Below are positions 15,759 through 24,010 of a DNA stretch of 64,000 nt, piece after piece. The DNA lies in the sequence record MK524178.1; one strand, written 5' to 3'. This stretch comes from Escherichia phage PHB12. The notes beneath the pieces were generated by a model. That model was not told the DNA's origin and made no database searches. It saw only the letters and a program-made list of their open reading frames with translations. The stretch's first letter is position 1, and the number at the start of each line of letters is the position of its first letter. The position numbers and the translations under genes were made by a program.

Positions 15759-17846
15759 CTATCCTTGGACAAATTTAAACGGAACTGATTCTAAATCCAT
15801 TAAAGATGCTAACAATTTCAATCCTTTAGGAGCACTAGTTTTTTCTACAAATGAAGAGAACGATACCGGCTCATCCGATTCGATTTCACCCGTCATAGCA
15901 ACCACCTCGCCTGTTTCCATGAGAACATCACCATCGTAAATGACAGCTTCATCCAACTGGTCTGAGGACATGACTTCAGCTTGAATAAATTTAAGGTTGG
16001 ATTCTAAACCTGCACCAGTGTCAGATGACGCATCTGTAATTTTATTTATCTGCAAGAGAATGCCTCTAGGCAAAATAATTTCTTGCTCGTTAGGGTGATT
16101 ACTCAACTGTCCCGGATAAATCACGTTAACTTTATGAGCGCCATCAATAGCCCATCCAACGTTAACACGGATTTGTTCTGGTGCATGCATAGCTGTTCTT
16201 ACTTGACTAGGAGAAATAGTAACACCTTCGTCGTTATTATCAATGTTAAGCTCTTTGCGAACTTCTTCAGGAGCAAGTCCAAGGGCAACGTTCTCTTTAA
16301 ACCCACCGAAAATAATAGGAGCTAGTGAAGTGGAAACATAGTTTCTGAAGTAGAATACCTTATTTTTAACCATTGCTTCGTAAATAGGCATTCTGATAGA
16401 CTGAGCTCTATATAACGTTAGTCCTTCAGGTAAACGGTCTCCATTTAAAAACGCCGAATCAAGACCATCAATAGCGCGTTTAACTTCATCTTCATCTGCA
16501 ACATCGTAAAAATCTGGTTTATAACGACCTAACAACATATTATTGATATCGGTATACGCAGAAGAGGCATATTCACGAATAGCTCGTTTTTCAGCAACAG
16601 AGTATTGTTTAGGGTCCCGATTCATTGTTATATTAAAGGTGCCTCTAGCCGATTCTCGTGCATAAGTATACATCACATTAGACAAGAACGCTGATTTGCG
16701 TTGTTTCCAAGTTTTTTCAGATACTTCAGCTAAAACGTCGTCGGCCAGTTGGAAATTATCACGTCTAAAATCTTCAAACCATTCGTCTTTAATAGAGTCT
16801 GCAATTTCATTTGCAGCTTCAACAAAAGCAGCTAATGCTTTAACAGATGTTGTTTTTTCAGTTTTAATTTTCTTAGCAAACTTTTCTAAAGTTGGTTTAA
16901 TAACACCACCATAAGAAACTTCATCAGCAAATCTAAAGGATTCATCAATGCGATTATAAATCTTATTTTCGATATCAGCAACTAAAGTGCCTTTTGCTGT
17001 GGACGATGCTTGGGCTAGTACGATTTCATATGCTTCAGGAAGTAATTCAGCTGTAGCTGGGCCGCTAACTTCTTTAGCAGAATTTTCGTATTTCTGGAAT
17101 AACTCACCTTCTTGACGGTCAGCTTCTAAAGATTGACTTGCTGCAATAGCACGACGAGAAATTTTAGTACGAGCAATAACAGGCTTATCTTTACGTTTTT
17201 CTTCTACCGCAGCAATAGAACCAGCGATAGCCGTTTCTTTGGTGACCTTTTCGCCAGTCTTTTTACTCACATAAACTTCGCCAACATCAGAATCTACTTT
17301 CGTGTACAACTCTGTGTTAATGTTAGGGATGCCTTTAATATCTTCAATGTTAGCATTTTTACGAACCATCATCACATAGGTGTGTTTACCTGTGAATTGA
17401 TACATTGCCGACAATACTTTAAAACGGCCACCGGTTTTAGTAGAAACTAAACGAGCAAGAAGAGTTTGAAGTTGTTGTCCACGTCCTTTCAATTTCTTGG
17501 TAGGGAATCGGAACAGAACTGCATCCATACGAAGAGCTTTAACTTGTTCATATACTGTATTGAAAATGGTGTTGATTGCATCAATAGGAGCAGGACCAAG
17601 GCCATTTTTCAATTCAGCGAGATTACCCTTTTCAGACAGACTCATAATAACAACATGAGCGTATTTGTCGCCAAGTTTAACTTGTTTTACAGCATCGCCT
17701 TCAGAAAGGTAAGAGAATAAGCGAACTACGATGTTTGTATCAATATCACCAATCTTCCAGACTTGTGGAACTTTAGCTTTAGGGTTCAAATTGACGACAG
17801 GAAGACTGCCTTCAGATTCAAACACTTCATTTAATTGTTCAGACAT
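15759..17846 (-). CDS. alt: Alt ADP-ribosyltransferase (packaged)
   Basis: 695 aa; conserved ART core (LPEGLTLYRAQS, YEAMVKNKVFYFRNYVSTSL) and C-terminus as in T4 Alt. Confidence 0.93.
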   Translation of the reverse strand: MSEQLNEVFESEGSLPVVNLNPKAKVPQVWKIGDIDTNIVVRLFSYLSEGDAVKQVKLGDKYAHVVIMSLSEKGNLAELKNGLGPAPIDAINTIFNTVYEQVKALRMDAVLFRFPTKKLKGRGQQLQTLLARLVSTKTGGRFKVLSAMYQFTGKHTYVMMVRKNANIEDIKGIPNINTELYTKVDSDVGEVYVSKKTGEKVTKETAIAGSIAAVEEKRKDKPVIARTKISRRAIAASQSLEADRQEGELFQKYENSAKEVSGPATAELLPEAYEIVLAQASSTAKGTLVADIENKIYNRIDESFRFADEVSYGGVIKPTLEKFAKKIKTEKTTSVKALAAFVEAANEIADSIKDEWFEDFRRDNFQLADDVLAEVSEKTWKQRKSAFLSNVMYTYARESARGTFNITMNRDPKQYSVAEKRAIREYASSAYTDINNMLLGRYKPDFYDVADEDEVKRAIDGLDSAFLNGDRLPEGLTLYRAQSIRMPIYEAMVKNKVFYFRNYVSTSLAPIIFGGFKENVALGLAPEEVRKELNIDNNDEGVTISPSQVRTAMHAPEQIRVNVGWAIDGAHKVNVIYPGQLSNHPNEQEIILPRGILLQINKITDASSDTGAGLESNLKFIQAEVMSSDQLDEAVIYDGDVLMETGEVVAMTGEIESDEPVSFSSFVEKTSAPKGLKLLASLMDLESVPFKFVQG

Positions 17847-17882
17847 AGTGTTTTCCTTTTAGTAATAATTTATATTTATGCC

Positions 17883-17902
17883 AAAAAGAGCCCGAAGGCT
17901 CT
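17883..17902 (-). terminator. hairpin terminator
   Basis: AGAGCC-TTCG-GGCTCT on minus strand followed by TTTTT. Confidence 0.7.
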
Positions 17903-18090
17903 TAATCCACAATCGGGAGCAAAGTACGATAAACTTCAAAATTAGGGCCTTTTTCGTACATATCAAAATTGTCCATAAAAATATGATAGGAATCGTTATT
18001 AGGAAAATCTAATACAATTTGTGAACAAGAGGTGGAAACATCACTACCGTCTTTATTAGTGACAACTACTGTTTCTAAATAAGCTTTCAT
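17902..18090 (-). CDS. hypothetical protein (62 aa)
   Basis: Start set at internal ATG forming TAATG overlap with the gene 30 stop. Confidence 0.5.
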   Translation of the reverse strand: MKAYLETVVVTNKDGSDVSTSCSQIVLDFPNNDSYHIFMDNFDMYEKGPNFEVYRTLLPIVD

Positions 18091-19583
18091 TATAAACCTG
18101 TCTGGGACCACGGTCCAAATACGTCTTCAAATGAATCCGCTTCTGTTTTATCAAAACGGAACCCTTTAATAATTGGAAGGAAAATACCTACAGTGCCTTC
18201 ACGGCCTTTAGAATGAACCCAACCATTACATTCACAATCAGCGATACGTCCGATTAATTTACCTTCACGAGCTTCGGTCATTAATCGTTCACGGTCCAAA
18301 TCATGACGCTCGTCTAAAGGAATAAGAACCTTTACACCGTCAACTGTTTTATGAGTTGTATCTTTAAACCCTGAACCACAATCGGTTGTAATACGACGAC
18401 AACGTGATACGAGTTCGACACCACCTAATTTGTTAGGGTCTTTAGAGTGTTCATAGTATCCTACAACTTCTAAAGCGATATCAATAACTTCTTTAAATTT
18501 AATTAGGTTCTTAGAGCGTTTGTTTTCCCAATATGAATCACGGTTTTTAAGGATAATACCTTCAAGACCTTGGTCAACATATTTTTTATAAACCAATTTA
18601 GCTTCATCAAGATTACGAACTAACTGATTTTCAATTGGCTCAATTCGCTTAAAGCCTTCAGCCATATTTTCAAGAGCAGCAAAACGAACATCATATTTCT
18701 GACCTTTAATTTTGCCATCAGAATAGACTTCATCTAAAGGAACATAGTCCCAGGCTTGAAGAACCATACCTTCCGCTTCTTTAGGAGAAATAGTCCCTTG
18801 AAGAGATTTATTTGCTAAACCATTTGAAGTGCTACGGTCTGCAACTTGTACTTCTTCAGATTCTTCATTATCACCAAATAAGAACGACAGGTCATTTCCT
18901 GAGCTCACAGCCTTTTTAATATCAAATGAATGATAAACTAATTCACCGTCGATTAAAACCCCATTAGGGTGTCTTTCTCGAGCTTCTTTAGTCATTTCCA
19001 TTAGTTCATCCGCTAATAGAGTAAGACCATAGTATTCGTTACCGGCACGAGAAAAGAATTGAACACCGTCATCGCGAACTTCAGCGAAACAACGAGCACC
19101 ATCTGCTTTTAATTGGGCAAATGCGGGCCATTTAATATTTTTAGTAATCAATTTCTCATCATATGCAGATGCTAACATCTGTGGTTGCAATTGAATAAGT
19201 CCAGGCCACACCTTATTCGCGATAGACACTGAAGCACCTACTTCAAGGTCGCGCATCATTACACGACGAAGGACTTCTACATCATCAGGTTTACCGTCAG
19301 CGATATAACCCATGAGCTCTTTAATTGCGGCATTACCAGTTAGTTTACGAGTGGCTAATGTGAACTCAATAAAATCCAACATGTCATCTAATTCAAGAAG
19401 ACCATATGCTTGAGACCTTTCACCCGGTCCTGGCCATTTCTTAATATAATACTGGATACCACGTGCATATGTTAAACGATACACACGTTCAAGTAATTTG
19501 TTGTCCTTATTTTTCTTAAGGATTTCTTGTTTTGTTTTAGTAGAACCGATCGCAGCTATTTGGTTTAAAATATCTAAAATCAT
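18090..19583 (-). CDS. 30: ATP-dependent DNA ligase gp30
   Basis: 497 aa; ligase motif I (FAQLKADGARCF) and overall match to T4 DNA ligase. Confidence 0.96.
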   Translation of the reverse strand: MILDILNQIAAIGSTKTKQEILKKNKDNKLLERVYRLTYARGIQYYIKKWPGPGERSQAYGLLELDDMLDFIEFTLATRKLTGNAAIKELMGYIADGKPDDVEVLRRVMMRDLEVGASVSIANKVWPGLIQLQPQMLASAYDEKLITKNIKWPAFAQLKADGARCFAEVRDDGVQFFSRAGNEYYGLTLLADELMEMTKEARERHPNGVLIDGELVYHSFDIKKAVSSGNDLSFLFGDNEESEEVQVADRSTSNGLANKSLQGTISPKEAEGMVLQAWDYVPLDEVYSDGKIKGQKYDVRFAALENMAEGFKRIEPIENQLVRNLDEAKLVYKKYVDQGLEGIILKNRDSYWENKRSKNLIKFKEVIDIALEVVGYYEHSKDPNKLGGVELVSRCRRITTDCGSGFKDTTHKTVDGVKVLIPLDERHDLDRERLMTEAREGKLIGRIADCECNGWVHSKGREGTVGIFLPIIKGFRFDKTEADSFEDVFGPWSQTGL

Positions 19584-19849
19584 TTGATGTCCTCGATTTT
19601 GGTTACGGTTCTATTATAAGCCACTTCATCTAGAAGCGATTTCAGCGTTTTCTGATAAGTGGTAATCCATTTACCTAGACCTTCAACATAATATTCTGAA
19701 ATGTAGATGAACCCTTGTTCAACACACTCTTTAAATATTTCTGCATCTTTTACTGAACGAAACATTGGCCAGTCTCGAAAGAACATGTTAACGTGACCGT
19801 AGTCACGCGTTGTGTTTTTGCCATCTGTAATATCATGAACTACAAACAT
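19580..19849 (-). CDS. hypothetical protein (89 aa), 30.1 position
   Basis: ORF overlapping the gene 30 start by 4 nt. Confidence 0.6.
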   Translation of the reverse strand: MFVVHDITDGKNTTRDYGHVNMFFRDWPMFRSVKDAEIFKECVEQGFIYISEYYVEGLGKWITTYQKTLKSLLDEVAYNRTVTKIEDIK

Positions 19850-19858
19850 AATTAACCC

Positions 19859-20674
19859 TTAACAATTTGTAGACCAAGTCCATTTAGACGAATCTAAAGG
19901 AAAGTTTTGAATCGTCCACCATGGCTGCATATCGGTTGGTCCTGGGGTTCGCCAGGTATACGGATTCGACGGACCGCCAATTTGATTAGGCCATGCACCT
20001 GGACTTGTTGTACCAGATTCTTTAAGCAAATCCGCCAATCGTTTTAAAAGGTCTTCACGATCTGAATCTGAATTATGCTCGGGTGGAACCAAACGAGATT
20101 CAATATCATCCCACGTGTGTACACGTTGTGCAGTACGAGGAATGGCATCACGTTCACCACGAGCCAACCAATAAATCGGTACATTAAGAATTTCTGCTGC
20201 ATGGTCACAGTGATGAGCTAAATCGTCAACGTAACAAATCACGTTATATTTTGTTTTAGCTAGTTCGAATAATTGTTCCTTTGAAGAATCATGACCACAC
20301 ATCATTACTTCAGAAAAGGCACCTGGGAACAAAGCATTCAAATTAAATTGTCTATTCAATCGAGCATCAATTGAATCACCTAGCGCCGTCACGGCTACAA
20401 AATTATAGTCTTCTTTTAATTTATTGATAACTCGAAGAGCATCCGAATAAGGCGCTAAGTAACGAATAAAATCAGAGCGATTATATTTTTCTATTAATTG
20501 TTTACCGAGGTTATCGTCGGTATTGAATAGTTTACCAGGAGAAATAAATTTTTCGTCCTGAATCATTTTTAAAATATGTTCTAATGGAAGATTATATTTT
20601 TGGGCAAAATAAGGAAGTCCAGATTGCCAGCTTAAACATACACCATCAATATCAGTCAAAATAGTAGGTTTCAT
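19859..20674 (-). CDS. HAD-superfamily hydrolase-like protein (30.2 position)
   Basis: 271 aa; N-terminal HAD motif I ILTDIDGV and later VDDLAHH; Trp/Pro-rich C-terminal tail. Confidence 0.65.
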   Translation of the reverse strand: MKPTILTDIDGVCLSWQSGLPYFAQKYNLPLEHILKMIQDEKFISPGKLFNTDDNLGKQLIEKYNRSDFIRYLAPYSDALRVINKLKEDYNFVAVTALGDSIDARLNRQFNLNALFPGAFSEVMMCGHDSSKEQLFELAKTKYNVICYVDDLAHHCDHAAEILNVPIYWLARGERDAIPRTAQRVHTWDDIESRLVPPEHNSDSDREDLLKRLADLLKESGTTSPGAWPNQIGGPSNPYTWRTPGPTDMQPWWTIQNFPLDSSKWTWSTNC

Positions 20675-21129
20675 AAAGAGTCTCTTAATAGGTTTAACAC
20701 ATCAATAAATTCAGCTTCGGTTAGTATTGTATCATCTTTTGTTAGGTGGCTGGCCATGCTGTGCTTCAAAATTTTTCCTTTAGAGGCTTGTAAGGCATCA
20801 CGAAACCCCTTGTTTTGGATCGCGGCTTCAAAATATGCATTTGTGTATAATTCTTTCCACGCTTCAGAGTATCTTGAAAATGGAACTCCTAACCAGAAGA
20901 GAGTTCCACGGTCCTGAGCTCTTGCATAAGACCTTCCAGCTTGCTGTGCAGCCAATCCAGACATCCCAAATATGCGTCTTTGCTGTTCAACATTTTTCAC
21001 CTTACATCCTTGGAGAAATCCTTCAAGTCCTCCGAATTGAATACCATCCATAACGAAAGGCCATTGAGCAAAGTTACTTAATGCACATGACGGCCATTTG
21101 AAATTGCTTCTTATTTCTAATTCAGACAT
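20671..21129 (-). CDS. NADAR (YbiA-like) domain protein (30.3 position)
   Basis: 152 aa from ATG (the track start at 21138 is GTG); LSNFAQWPFVMDG...EGFLQGCKV aligns with the YbiA FSNFAAWP...HYFQAQKF motif. Confidence 0.6.
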   Translation of the reverse strand: MSELEIRSNFKWPSCALSNFAQWPFVMDGIQFGGLEGFLQGCKVKNVEQQRRIFGMSGLAAQQAGRSYARAQDRGTLFWLGVPFSRYSEAWKELYTNAYFEAAIQNKGFRDALQASKGKILKHSMASHLTKDDTILTEAEFIDVLNLLRDSL

Positions 21130-21340
21130 CTTTAACACTTATAATTTCAACATCAGCCCAATGGCCGTATCCAGGTATACGGTCTTCGATAGATAAATTT
21201 CCATCATTTTTAGGCATTTTAATTGACGTAACGTATGGTTCTAAACGGTTTTCTGCATAATATGGAAAAACGTCTGTTACACGATAAGTAACTTCGATCA
21301 TTTCCGTACCTAATAATTTCTGAATCAATTTCTTAAGCAT
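21122..21340 (-). CDS. hypothetical protein (72 aa)
   Basis: ATG with SD GAGGA. Confidence 0.55.
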   Translation of the reverse strand: MLKKLIQKLLGTEMIEVTYRVTDVFPYYAENRLEPYVTSIKMPKNDGNLSIEDRIPGYGHWADVEIISVKDV

Positions 21341-21341
21341 A

Positions 21342-21536
21342 TTATCCTCGCTTTAAACATTTGATTACAGACAGTTCACCACCCATGCGAACGTCTTCAG
21401 TTCCATCGACCCATAAGACGGTGTAGGCTTCTTTAATAATAACATTACCTAATTTAAAAGCAGGTAGAACCTTTGAAATCATTCCAGGAATACCTACACC
21501 TTTTAACTGGACTGTTTGTGATAAGAATAGTTGCAT
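21342..21536 (-). CDS. hypothetical protein (64 aa)
   Basis: TAATG-coupled to the upstream ORF. Confidence 0.5.
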   Translation of the reverse strand: MQLFLSQTVQLKGVGIPGMISKVLPAFKLGNVIIKEAYTVLWVDGTEDVRMGGELSVIKCLKRG

Positions 21537-21823
21537 TAGAACCTCATCTGAAAGCCATGGGATTTAACATTACCACCATAGATGTCAGAGGTATTGACTT
21601 CACGGGCGACACTTGGGTCGATATTGATGTCACGGTTGAGCTTAGTGATTGCTAGGGTATCACGTCCATTAACAGTACGGAATTCTACCGGGCATACAAC
21701 ATCAGCATAAGCCTTAATAGATTCACGAGTAGGTTGTTTGTCGGCAGGAACATCTTTACCAGCTTTAGAGAAAACAACTTCACAGAAATTTTTACGAGTA
21801 TCAAAATAAGTGGTCATAAACAT
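21536..21823 (-). CDS. hypothetical protein (95 aa)
   Basis: Start set at ATG with SD GAGGA, downstream of a terminator hairpin that the longer track ORF would cross. Confidence 0.55.
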   Translation of the reverse strand: MFMTTYFDTRKNFCEVVFSKAGKDVPADKQPTRESIKAYADVVCPVEFRTVNGRDTLAITKLNRDINIDPSVAREVNTSDIYGGNVKSHGFQMRF

Positions 21824-21838
21824 AATATTTTCCTCAAA

Positions 21839-21854
21839 GGAGGCCGAAGCCTCC
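21839..21854 (-). terminator. hairpin terminator
   Basis: GGAGGC-TTCG-GCCTCC followed by TTTGAGG. Confidence 0.6.
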
Positions 21855-21864
21855 ATTTTTAAGA

Positions 21865-22230
21865 TTAGATATCAAATTCGTTAAGAACTACATCAAAGAT
21901 TGCTTCGAGATGTTCAGGTTTAGCTCGATTGCTCAGGATGTGACGAATCCAAGTTTTTACCAGAAGCTTACGATTAACACCGTTCCAGCAAGGATGGGTA
22001 CCTAAATTACGTTGACGGAAATCGTCATCTAATGCAATTTTGAAGTTGGAACCTTCCATCGTGATTGAAACCGTGATGCCATTTTCAAATCGCATATAAA
22101 CGTAATTAGGAGTCATATACTGCTCAATTTCGCATACTGAACCGTTATTATGCTTCCATAAGCAAATTGTATCGATAGAACCAGCAATACCGTTAGAAAC
22201 ATATTTACGTTCGAAGTTGATGTAGTTCAT
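21865..22230 (-). CDS. hypothetical early protein (121 aa)
   Basis: Preceded by an early promoter and SD GGAGAATAAA. Confidence 0.6.
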   Translation of the reverse strand: MNYINFERKYVSNGIAGSIDTICLWKHNNGSVCEIEQYMTPNYVYMRFENGITVSITMEGSNFKIALDDDFRQRNLGTHPCWNGVNRKLLVKTWIRHILSNRAKPEHLEAIFDVVLNEFDI

Positions 22231-22304
22231 TTTATTCTCCAGATGTTTAAGTTGTTTGTTGGTACAGGTCTATAATAACAAAACCTGTACCAAAGTAAAC
22301 ATTT

Positions 22305-22676
22305 TTATTTGATTTTTGTCCACTTAGCTGAATCAATAACACCTTTTGCTTTAATCTTCTCGATTAATGTCTCTGCGCGATTTCTGGCATTTTCGTACCA
22401 TACAACATCTTCAGAGTAACCAGTTTCTTCATCTTCGTAAGTTTTAGAACGAATACAACCATAAACTGTAGAATTCAGACGGTAAATTTCACCAGTGAAA
22501 AAGTTTTCGATTTCGATATGATAACAAAAATCGTCTGAAGGGCCATCAGGAGTTGTACAATAAACTACATCACCTTGAACCGAACGAACCATCCACTGTA
22601 ACTCGTTAACAACTTGAGATTTATATCCATCATGGTCACGGCATTTAATTGTAGCATTTAAATTGATAGTGTTCAT
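22305..22676 (-). CDS. hypothetical early protein (123 aa)
   Basis: Preceded by a near-identical promoter/SD module. Confidence 0.6.
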   Translation of the reverse strand: MNTINLNATIKCRDHDGYKSQVVNELQWMVRSVQGDVVYCTTPDGPSDDFCYHIEIENFFTGEIYRLNSTVYGCIRSKTYEDEETGYSEDVVWYENARNRAETLIEKIKAKGVIDSAKWTKIK

Positions 22677-22774
22677 TTTATTCTCCGGTTGTTTTATTGA
22701 TTAGGTAGTACAAGTCTATAGTAACACATCCTACAGGAGAGTAAACATCTTTTTAAACTTTTTCTGCCCTAAAC

Positions 22775-22800
22775 GCACAAAAGGGAGACCGAAGTCTCCC
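22775..22800 (-). terminator. hairpin terminator
   Basis: GGGAGAC-TTCG-GTCTCCC followed by TTTTG. Confidence 0.75.
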
Positions 22801-22805
22801 TAAAA

Positions 22806-22985
22806 TTATGCAACAACCTTTCCAAAACGAGAAGCATCATCTCGAAGAACTGCACGTGCTCTGCGCATGATCTTCTCAACTGTTTGATTAATACGAGAGT
22901 TCGACCCACGCTTGTATCCAGCGCGTTTAGAGGTACCATCAACTTTCTTTTCAACTGCTTTCTTTGCTTTAGCTTGTTTTGCCAT
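22806..22985 (-). CDS. small basic protein (59 aa), not in supplied ORF track
   Basis: MAKQAKAKKAVEKK...; ends just before the terminator hairpin, unlike the overlapping 61-aa track ORF. Confidence 0.5.
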   Translation of the reverse strand: MAKQAKAKKAVEKKVDGTSKRAGYKRGSNSRINQTVEKIMRRARAVLRDDASRFGKVVA

Positions 22986-23249
22986 TATAAATTCTCTTTA
23001 AATGAAAATGCAGGACTTATTGACATTGCCTGCGCAAGCCCTCAAGGGGAACATAGGTTTCGGATATTTAACGACAGGATAACTATAAACCTCGTCATCA
23101 TACCGACCACGACTTAGACAGATAACCTTTTTCTGACGCGTGATAGTACAAAATACATTCAAGAGGTACACCGTAAAATTGTTGGGGTCTTAAAACTATA
23201 ATGATTCGCAAATCATTAATCAGACAATTCGACGGCTCCTCGATTTAAC

Positions 23250-23498
23250 TTACTTAAGGGTAATAACAAAATGACGAACTGCTTTACGTGCGGCAGAAGC
23301 CAGAGGCTTAGCATATTTCAATTCATCTTTAGCTTCCAGTTCAGCGGCCAAAGAAGCCTGAGCAGGATTCAGATGTTTGAAATAACGCAGGATTTCAAGA
23401 GCTTCGGCTTCAACATCAATGGATGCACCATAGTTTTCATGACCGTTATTCCATGCGTTGCGTTGCAGTTCAAGAGCGTGTTGTAATTGTTTAATCAT
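23250..23498 (-). CDS. rIII: rIII lysis-inhibition accessory protein (probable)
   Basis: 82 aa, immediately downstream of gene 31 as in T4; late promoter upstream. Confidence 0.75.
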   Translation of the reverse strand: MIKQLQHALELQRNAWNNGHENYGASIDVEAEALEILRYFKHLNPAQASLAAELEAKDELKYAKPLASAARKAVRHFVITLK

Positions 23499-23614
23499 TT
23501 TAAAGTCTCAATTCGAGATAATATTTAGTAGCCACGTTCGTCTGAATTTCACCTTCTTTCGACAAGTCTCTCAGTTGTAGGCTACCGCTTAGAAGAGTGT
23601 TCTCTTCATATAGT

Positions 23615-23622
23615 TATTTATA
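23615..23622 (-). promoter_or_regulatory. late promoter (TATAAATA, minus strand) upstream of rIII
   Basis: Exact match immediately after the gene 31 stop. Confidence 0.6.
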
Positions 23623-23955
23623 TCACTTATAAAGGCACGGAATAGCTTTATAGTGGCATGTTACGAATTTCTGTTTAATTTCTTTAGGTTGTTTAAGACC
23701 TAAAGCCACAAATGGATGCGGAACATTTCGAATTTGTCCAACTGGTAGTGGAGTCAAATCACCGACTTCAACAAAACCTTCAGGAACATCAGGACCTACA
23801 GAATGAACTACACATAGTTCAGGAACTTCACCTTGAACACGTTTACCAATCACAAGTCCTGATTCGGTAACTTCTTCATCACCTGCTTGAGCTGGTTCAG
23901 AAACCAGAATGACATATTCACCAACAGCACGAATTGGGAGTTGTACTTCAGACAT
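23623..23955 (-). CDS. 31: co-chaperonin gp31 (GroES-like)
   Basis: 110 aa; matches T4 gp31 length and position. Confidence 0.92.
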
Positions 23956-23985
23956 CTTATTTCCTTGTTGTTTGACGATAGATTA

Positions 23986-24010
23986 ATAATACCATACTAT
24001 TCGTAAAGCA
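23986..24010 (-). promoter_or_regulatory. MotA-dependent middle promoter for gene 31
   Basis: Minus strand tATGCTTTA - 12 nt - TATTAT. Confidence 0.6.

Follow-up and report, generated by a model that had tools for sequence, protein, structure and literature searches.

A very probable orthologue of the T4 anti-DarT factor AdfN in an RB69-like Escherichia phage

The open reading frame (ORF) at positions 20671..21129 (minus strand) of the window, the whole 64,000-nucleotide stretch of Escherichia phage PHB12 DNA that was analysed, is with a probability of about 0.93 the orthologue of T4 gene 30.3, which encodes AdfN (anti-DarT factor NADAR), carried by an RB69-like (Mosigvirus) phage and specifying a protein that reverses the guanine ADP-ribosylation carried out by DarT1. 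The identity of the gene, the fold of its product, the conservation of the catalytic residues, the intactness of the allele and the purifying selection on it are established in the present analysis. The AdfN gene family, fold, chemistry and anti-DarTG1 role are already published, and the window gene is of this known kind. The published function is still absent from most database annotation; the value of the assignment lies in annotation and in phenotype prediction.

Gene 30.3 (adfN) and its protein family

The adfN gene reads from an ATG at 21129 to a TGA stop at 20671-20673 on the minus strand and encodes 152 residues plus the stop (MSELEIRSNF...VLNLLRDSL), annotated here as a phage NADAR-family DNA ADP-ribosylglycohydrolase; the original prediction had these limits and this length exactly. 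A mechanical ORF listing starts the gene at a GTG (21138) three codons upstream, which gives 155 residues. The ATG is preferred because it is the start of T4 gp30.3 in the annotation of NC_000866 and in the published cloning primers. The window gene departs from T4 30.3 at 51 nucleotides, of which 40 are third codon positions, and shows no indels; the codon changes are 36 synonymous and 6 non-synonymous. adfN is a real coding gene under purifying selection.

The start of adfN overlaps the stop of an upstream 72-aa gene, the 30.4 orthologue, within ATGTCTGA (21122..21129, minus strand), and the ATGA at 20671..20674 (minus strand) is shared between its stop and the start of gene 30.2, the HAD-like gene that follows. 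Thus, adfN lies in a tightly packed early-gene string that is probably translationally coupled. A promoter/terminator scan of 19500-24000 found 12 promoter-like sites versus 14.0 +/- 4.4 expected, none of them assignable, and sigma-70-like sites upstream of adfN are no commoner than in shuffled sequence. T4 also has an annotated out-of-frame gene, 30.3' (75 aa), within 30.3. In the window, this frame (20766-20993, minus strand) is interrupted and leaves two short ORFs (34 aa and 24 aa), which suggests that 30.3' is not a conserved gene.

The window AdfN matches the Pfam family PF08010 (Phage_30_3, 'Bacteriophage protein GP30.3') with E=1.3e-69 and 232.7 bits (cutoff 36) over profile positions 1-138 of 138; its PHROG match is phrog_652 (E=6e-52), a group of unknown function. 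The alignment with T4 gp30.3 is gap-free and full length, with 146/152 residues identical (96%). The six substitutions (K11R, M56L, E89P, I120V, M125I and H128G) are conservative or of surface type, arise in a genome that is RB69-like, and fall outside every one of the 17 columns that are invariant in the family (P13, A16, L17, S18, N19, F20, F25, E36, G37, F38, Q40, K43, Q50, A61, H123, L136 and T137). Similarly to T4 gp30.3, the window protein is 152 aa long, has E36, K43, H123 and a C-terminal helix, and is encoded between 30.4 and 30.2, its start and stop codons overlapping these neighbours.

By tblastn, adfN is present in 1,510 of 50,697 phage records, including Escherichia, Klebsiella, Shigella, Aeromonas, Acinetobacter and Vibrio phages, and nearly all of the 1,510 label it 'hypothetical protein'. 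Two other labels are probably mis-annotations: 'homing endonuclease' for the homologue of Rhizobium phage P9VFCI, and 'anti-CBASS protein acb1' for the feature under the adfN match of Klebsiella phage Roth21. The databases also contain N-terminal fragments of AdfN with additional Pfam matches to PF11097 or to PF06919/PF06019; the latter pair is also matched by the gp30.7 and gp30.8 orthologues of the window. These fragments imply that certain T4-like phages have putative natural deletions spanning 30.3-30.8 and, thus, such phages should be DarTG1-sensitive.

NADAR fold and active site

As a single sequence, the window AdfN has no match to PF08719 (NADAR) at E<=1 in an hmmscan of Pfam, nothing at E<=10 in a phmmer search of PDB sequences and nothing at E<=1 in a search of NCBIfam. 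Three independent lines of evidence (profile, transitive and structural) nevertheless place it in the NADAR superfamily. A family alignment was made of 92-93 AdfN homologues, with identity down to 35%. The resulting HMMER profile finds E. coli YbiA (PDB sequence 2b3w) at E=0.0042, pairing LSNFa...mEGFLqslKf of the family with FSNFAAWPIKVDGKTWPTSEHYFQAQKF of YbiA. The alignment reproduces the motif pairing on which the original prediction had called the ORF NADAR (LSNFAQWPFVMDG...EGFLQGCKV versus YbiA FSNFAAWPIKVDG...EHYFQAQKF). When each family member is scanned singly, PF08010 is found in 92/92 and PF08719 in 36/92 (best E=1.5e-7); an HMM search against PF08719, which had been suggested as a check, is thus negative for the single sequence and positive for these relatives. 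Applied word for word, the refuting condition of the original prediction (no significant match to NADAR profiles) would have counted against this sequence by itself.

The structural evidence points the same way. An AlphaFold2 model of AdfN, built on the family alignment without the T4 row, has a mean pLDDT of 93.1 and a pTM of 0.88. The top three structures found with this model by Foldseek in the PDB are YbiA (2b3w), PnNADAR-ADPr (8bau, a Phytophthora NADAR-ADP-ribose complex) and a DarG1-type NADAR (8bat, the DarT-associated NADAR of Geobacter lovleyi), with probabilities of 0.97-1.00; the YbiA match has E=1.5e-4 and a TM of 0.68, and every further match has a probability <=0.07. By this predicted structure, the window AdfN has the NADAR fold and belongs to the NADAR superfamily.

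The putative active site is conserved. Glu36 (GAA codon, 21022..21024, minus strand), the predicted catalytic glutamate contacting ADP-ribose, is invariant in 93 members and aligns with the Glu of 'SEHYFQAQKF' in YbiA. Lys43 (AAG, 21001..21003, minus strand), the predicted phosphate-coordinating catalytic lysine, is family-invariant and aligns with the YbiA Lys. His123 (CAC, 20761..20763, minus strand), the signature residue of the phage NADARs, is likewise family-invariant and in the model ends the last beta-strand (residues 120-123). A C-terminal alpha-helix is modelled for residues 138-151 (20677..20718, minus strand); it is intact in the window protein and lost in the frameshifted RB69 allele. 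In T4 AdfN, E36A and K43A each impair the enzyme with partial activity kept, and C-terminal truncation reduces activity, the helix being required for full activity (PMC11825919). Structure prediction and active-site comparison, both proposed with the original prediction, thus lead to NADAR structures and to three invariant residues.

The residue of the last strand splits the NADARs into families: YbiA and its kin have Glu, DarT-associated members (BC4488/DarG1) have Asp and phage gp30.3 has His (PMC11125620, PMC11543638). His123 occurs in every member of the AdfN family and replaces the Glu that defines YbiA, with which the window protein shares 19-20% identity. Of the description 'NADAR (YbiA-like)', then, the NADAR part is upheld by the profile, transitive and Foldseek matches, and 'YbiA-like' fails in the strict sense, the last-strand His placing the protein in the phage-NADAR family. 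The activities differ as well: YbiA removes ADP-ribose from cytidine (cytidine-ADPr) and the T4 phage NADAR does not (Toxins 2026, PMC12945103). The same residue bears on the proposal that AdfN is a metabolic N-glycosidase like YbiA/COG3236, which acts on reactive intermediates of the riboflavin pathway and not on DNA adducts. The fold that the model shares with YbiA and the riboflavin-synthesis roles of some NADARs, cited in PMC12945103 and in the AdfN work, are in line with such a function; however, AdfN has His123 in place of the YbiA-defining Glu, no riboflavin genes flank adfN, and both the DNA de-ADP-ribosylation and the DarTG1 phenotype of the T4 orthologue are directly demonstrated (PMC11825919), leaving a metabolic role next to no probability.

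The DarG1 antitoxins are closer relatives: the AdfN paper places the phage-NADAR (gp30.3) family nearest to them (PMC11825919). By contrast with DarG1 (e.g., Geobacter lovleyi 8bat and the E. coli C7 NADAR), AdfN is without the N-terminal extension (152 aa compared to 189-219 aa for solved NADARs), has a last-strand His instead of Asp and has no DarT1 or other ADP-ribosyltransferase gene adjacent to it. In uninfected cells, T4 AdfN is no substitute for DarG1 (PMC11125620, PMC11825919). By analogy, AdfN would work like DarG1 but as an orphan.

Published function of AdfN and the proposed mechanism

The function of gp30.3 was worked out in a series of studies. Schuller et al. (Mol Cell 2023, PMC11543638) showed that NADARs reverse the guanine ADP-ribosylation carried out by DarT1 and noted the histidine variant in phage NADARs. 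T4 gp30.3 was found to hydrolyse guanosine-ADPr and not thymidine-ADPr, and to give uninfected cells no protection from DarT1 (Toxins 2024, PMC11125620). Phage crosses then identified 30.3, renamed adfN, as the gene by which T-even phages resist DarTG1 (Johannesman et al., bioRxiv 2024, PMC11257639; Nat Commun 2025, PMC11825919). The latter study reports that deletion of adfN makes T4 and T2 ~10^4-fold more sensitive to DarTG1, that the escape of T-even phages from DarTG1 requires AdfN, which is also sufficient for it, that ectopic AdfN rescues RB69 from DarTG1, that purified T4 AdfN strips ADP-ribose from DarT1-modified DNA, and that T4 AdfN does not bind DarT1 (PMC11825919).

In the proposed mechanism, the DarT1 toxin of an infected DarTG1 host would attach ADP-ribose to guanine of the phage DNA and so block replication. 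AdfN, as a minimal NADAR-fold glycohydrolase, would bind the ADP-ribose through Glu36, Lys43 and His123 and cleave the ribose-guanine bond, and the unmodified DNA restored in this way would allow replication to proceed. AdfN may thus be viewed as an 'orphan antitoxin' whose target is the modification, not the toxin. Given the 96% identity to T4 AdfN, we infer that the window protein has the same activity, removing guanine ADP-ribose from DNA and conferring resistance to DarTG1 like the T4 protein. An anti-DarT role by ADP-ribose removal had been guessed from the DNA; the guess was correct, being borne out by fold matches to NADARs only, by the conserved Glu36 and Lys43 and by the near identity to an experimentally characterised protein, and the function itself was published in 2023-2025. 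The structure comparison, the plating on DarTG hosts and the in vitro assay that had been proposed are, by the T4 AdfN publications, already done on a 96%-identical protein.

The published picture has further elements. T4 AdfN rescues phages outside the T-even group weakly and is fully active solely during T-even infection, and the authors suspect that a further T-even protein is involved (PMC11825919). DNA hydroxymethylation/glucosylation is not behind the T-even dependence because the unmodified T4-GT7 still requires AdfN. The failure to neutralise DarT1 in uninfected cells, the weak rescue of phages outside the T-even group and the partial activity of the mutants indicate that a single enzyme at work on DNA alone is not the full account.

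The range of AdfN may also be wider than DarT1-modified DNA, including or mainly comprising guanine-ADPr of RNA (tRNA, mRNA) or the products of other guanine-directed toxins (pierisin/ScARP-like), which would add to the main explanation. All NADAR families also remove guanine-ADPr from RNA according to the introduction of a 2026 paper; the 1,510 phage records span many host genera, probably more widely than DarTG1 occurs; and a tRNA gene cluster encloses the homologue in two distant lineages of phages. In Klebsiella phage Shark_ER15 (L004 4001-4450) and Enterobacter phage vB_VIPECLUMC02 (L005 4001-4450), an AdfN homologue of about 42-44% identity has tRNA genes on both sides. The tRNA clusters of T4-like phages are, however, general hotspots for accessory genes and, therefore, this location may be a hotspot effect and mean nothing, and DarTG1 is the sole system tied to an AdfN phenotype. 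A wider range is considered unlikely, if the least unlikely of the additions and alternatives weighed here.

Gene neighbourhood and comparison with T4 and RB69

The gene downstream of adfN, the 30.2 orthologue (19859-20674, minus strand, 271 aa), opens with MKPTILTDIDGV, an HAD-phosphatase motif I, and has a Pro/Trp-rich C-terminal tail. Its HAD matches are weak in Pfam (E=0.019, below threshold) and in NCBIfam, and it matches phrog_420 (function unknown). Resembling HAD-type phosphatases, with its DxDGV motif intact and its start codon overlapping the adfN stop, 30.2 is a candidate for the additional T-even protein suspected from the T4 work, and the two genes could form a 30.3-30.2 module for DNA de-ADP-ribosylation. 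A relative of 30.2 lies within 4 kb on either side of the AdfN homologue in 0/4 distant phages and, as the two genes are not co-conserved there, the partnership is rated highly unlikely.

Alt, the other ADP-ribose enzyme of the neighbourhood, is encoded at 15759-17846 (minus strand, 695 aa; PF03496, E=6.3e-28), 2.8 kb from adfN, in keeping with the 'few kb' of the original prediction, with alt.1, DNA ligase, 30.1 and 30.2 between the two. The T4 record annotates Alt as a mono-ADP-ribosyltransferase of RNA polymerase. The proximity had suggested that the same genome writes and may erase ADP-ribose marks and, in its stronger form, the idea is that AdfN erases the phage's own marks (arginine ADP-ribosylation or RNAylation by Alt, ModA or ModB), alt and 30.3 being a writer-eraser pair. 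Alt is on the same strand as adfN, and to our knowledge there is no known eraser of Alt marks, which counts for a writer-eraser pair. Arginine-ADPr activity of NADARs is not addressed in the portions of the AdfN/NADAR literature drawn on here, and, by whole-word search, the names Alt, ModA and ModB do not occur in the AdfN paper.

Against such a pair, the T4 NADAR is specific for guanine-ADPr and leaves thymidine-ADPr and cytidine-ADPr uncleaved (PMC11125620, PMC12945103), and DarTG1 alone fully explains the adfN deletion phenotype (PMC11825919). The order alt, alt.1, 30, 30.1, 30.2, 30.3 is common to T4 and RB69 and is plain T-even synteny. Within 4 kb on either side of the distant AdfN homologues in Vibrio, Rhizobium, Klebsiella and Enterobacter phages, there are no relatives of Alt, 30.1, 30.2 or 30.4-30.8. 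A writer-eraser pair is accordingly very improbable, a shade more so than the 30.2 module. Alt is a phage attack on host proteins and AdfN a repair of the host attack on phage DNA, and the marks differ. The genome does both write and erase ADP-ribose, as had been proposed; a functional pairing with Alt does not follow, given the different marks and a mere T-even gene order. A functional partnership of AdfN with either 30.2 or Alt is rejected as unsupported, as the AdfN gene travels alone in the distant phages and the neighbourhood is unconserved around all four homologues.

Conservation across the region (15759-22676) is strongly mosaic. The flanking Alt, ligase, 30.1, 30.2, 30.4 and 30.8 products are 39-70% identical to T4 and 90-99% identical to RB69: Alt has 41% identity to T4 and 92.6% to RB69, DNA ligase 63% and 98.8%, gp30.1 58% and 96.6%, gp30.2 70% and 98.5%, and gp30.8 39% and 99.2%. 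AdfN and gp30.7 are ~96% identical to both T4 and RB69 and are, thus, far better conserved across genera than their neighbours. Judged from these sequences, the window phage is RB69-like (genus Mosigvirus), not T4. A 64-aa orthologue of 30.5 (21342-21536) is present in the window and in T4, and RB69 is without a match.

The RB69 allele of 30.3 shares this genus-level background and differs at its end. It is 96% identical to the window AdfN over residues 1-137, and its annotated product has 137 aa. When the two DNA sequences are aligned, ctaacTtgaagctga of RB69 stands opposite ctaac-cgaagctga of the window; the one extra T brings a stop after residue 137, the last helix is gone, and the sequences past the insertion are otherwise identical through the ATGA overlap with 30.2. 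Of the T-even phages tested, RB69 alone is sensitive to DarTG1, and the one-T insertion shortens its 30.3 product by 15 residues (PMC11825919). The window allele is intact and lacks this frameshift and, therefore, the phage is predicted to be resistant to DarTG1. More generally, an intact as opposed to an RB69-type truncated adfN predicts the growth of T4-like therapeutic or laboratory phages on DarTG1 hosts.

The closest record to the window is Escherichia phage SF (Mosigvirus sf), with 98.8% DNA identity. In its CDS table, a 450-bp gap lies between the 30.2 and 30.4 orthologues where adfN sits; the DNA there (NC_055749.1, 1372-1830) carries an intact, unannotated adfN of equal length that differs from the window gene product by one residue.
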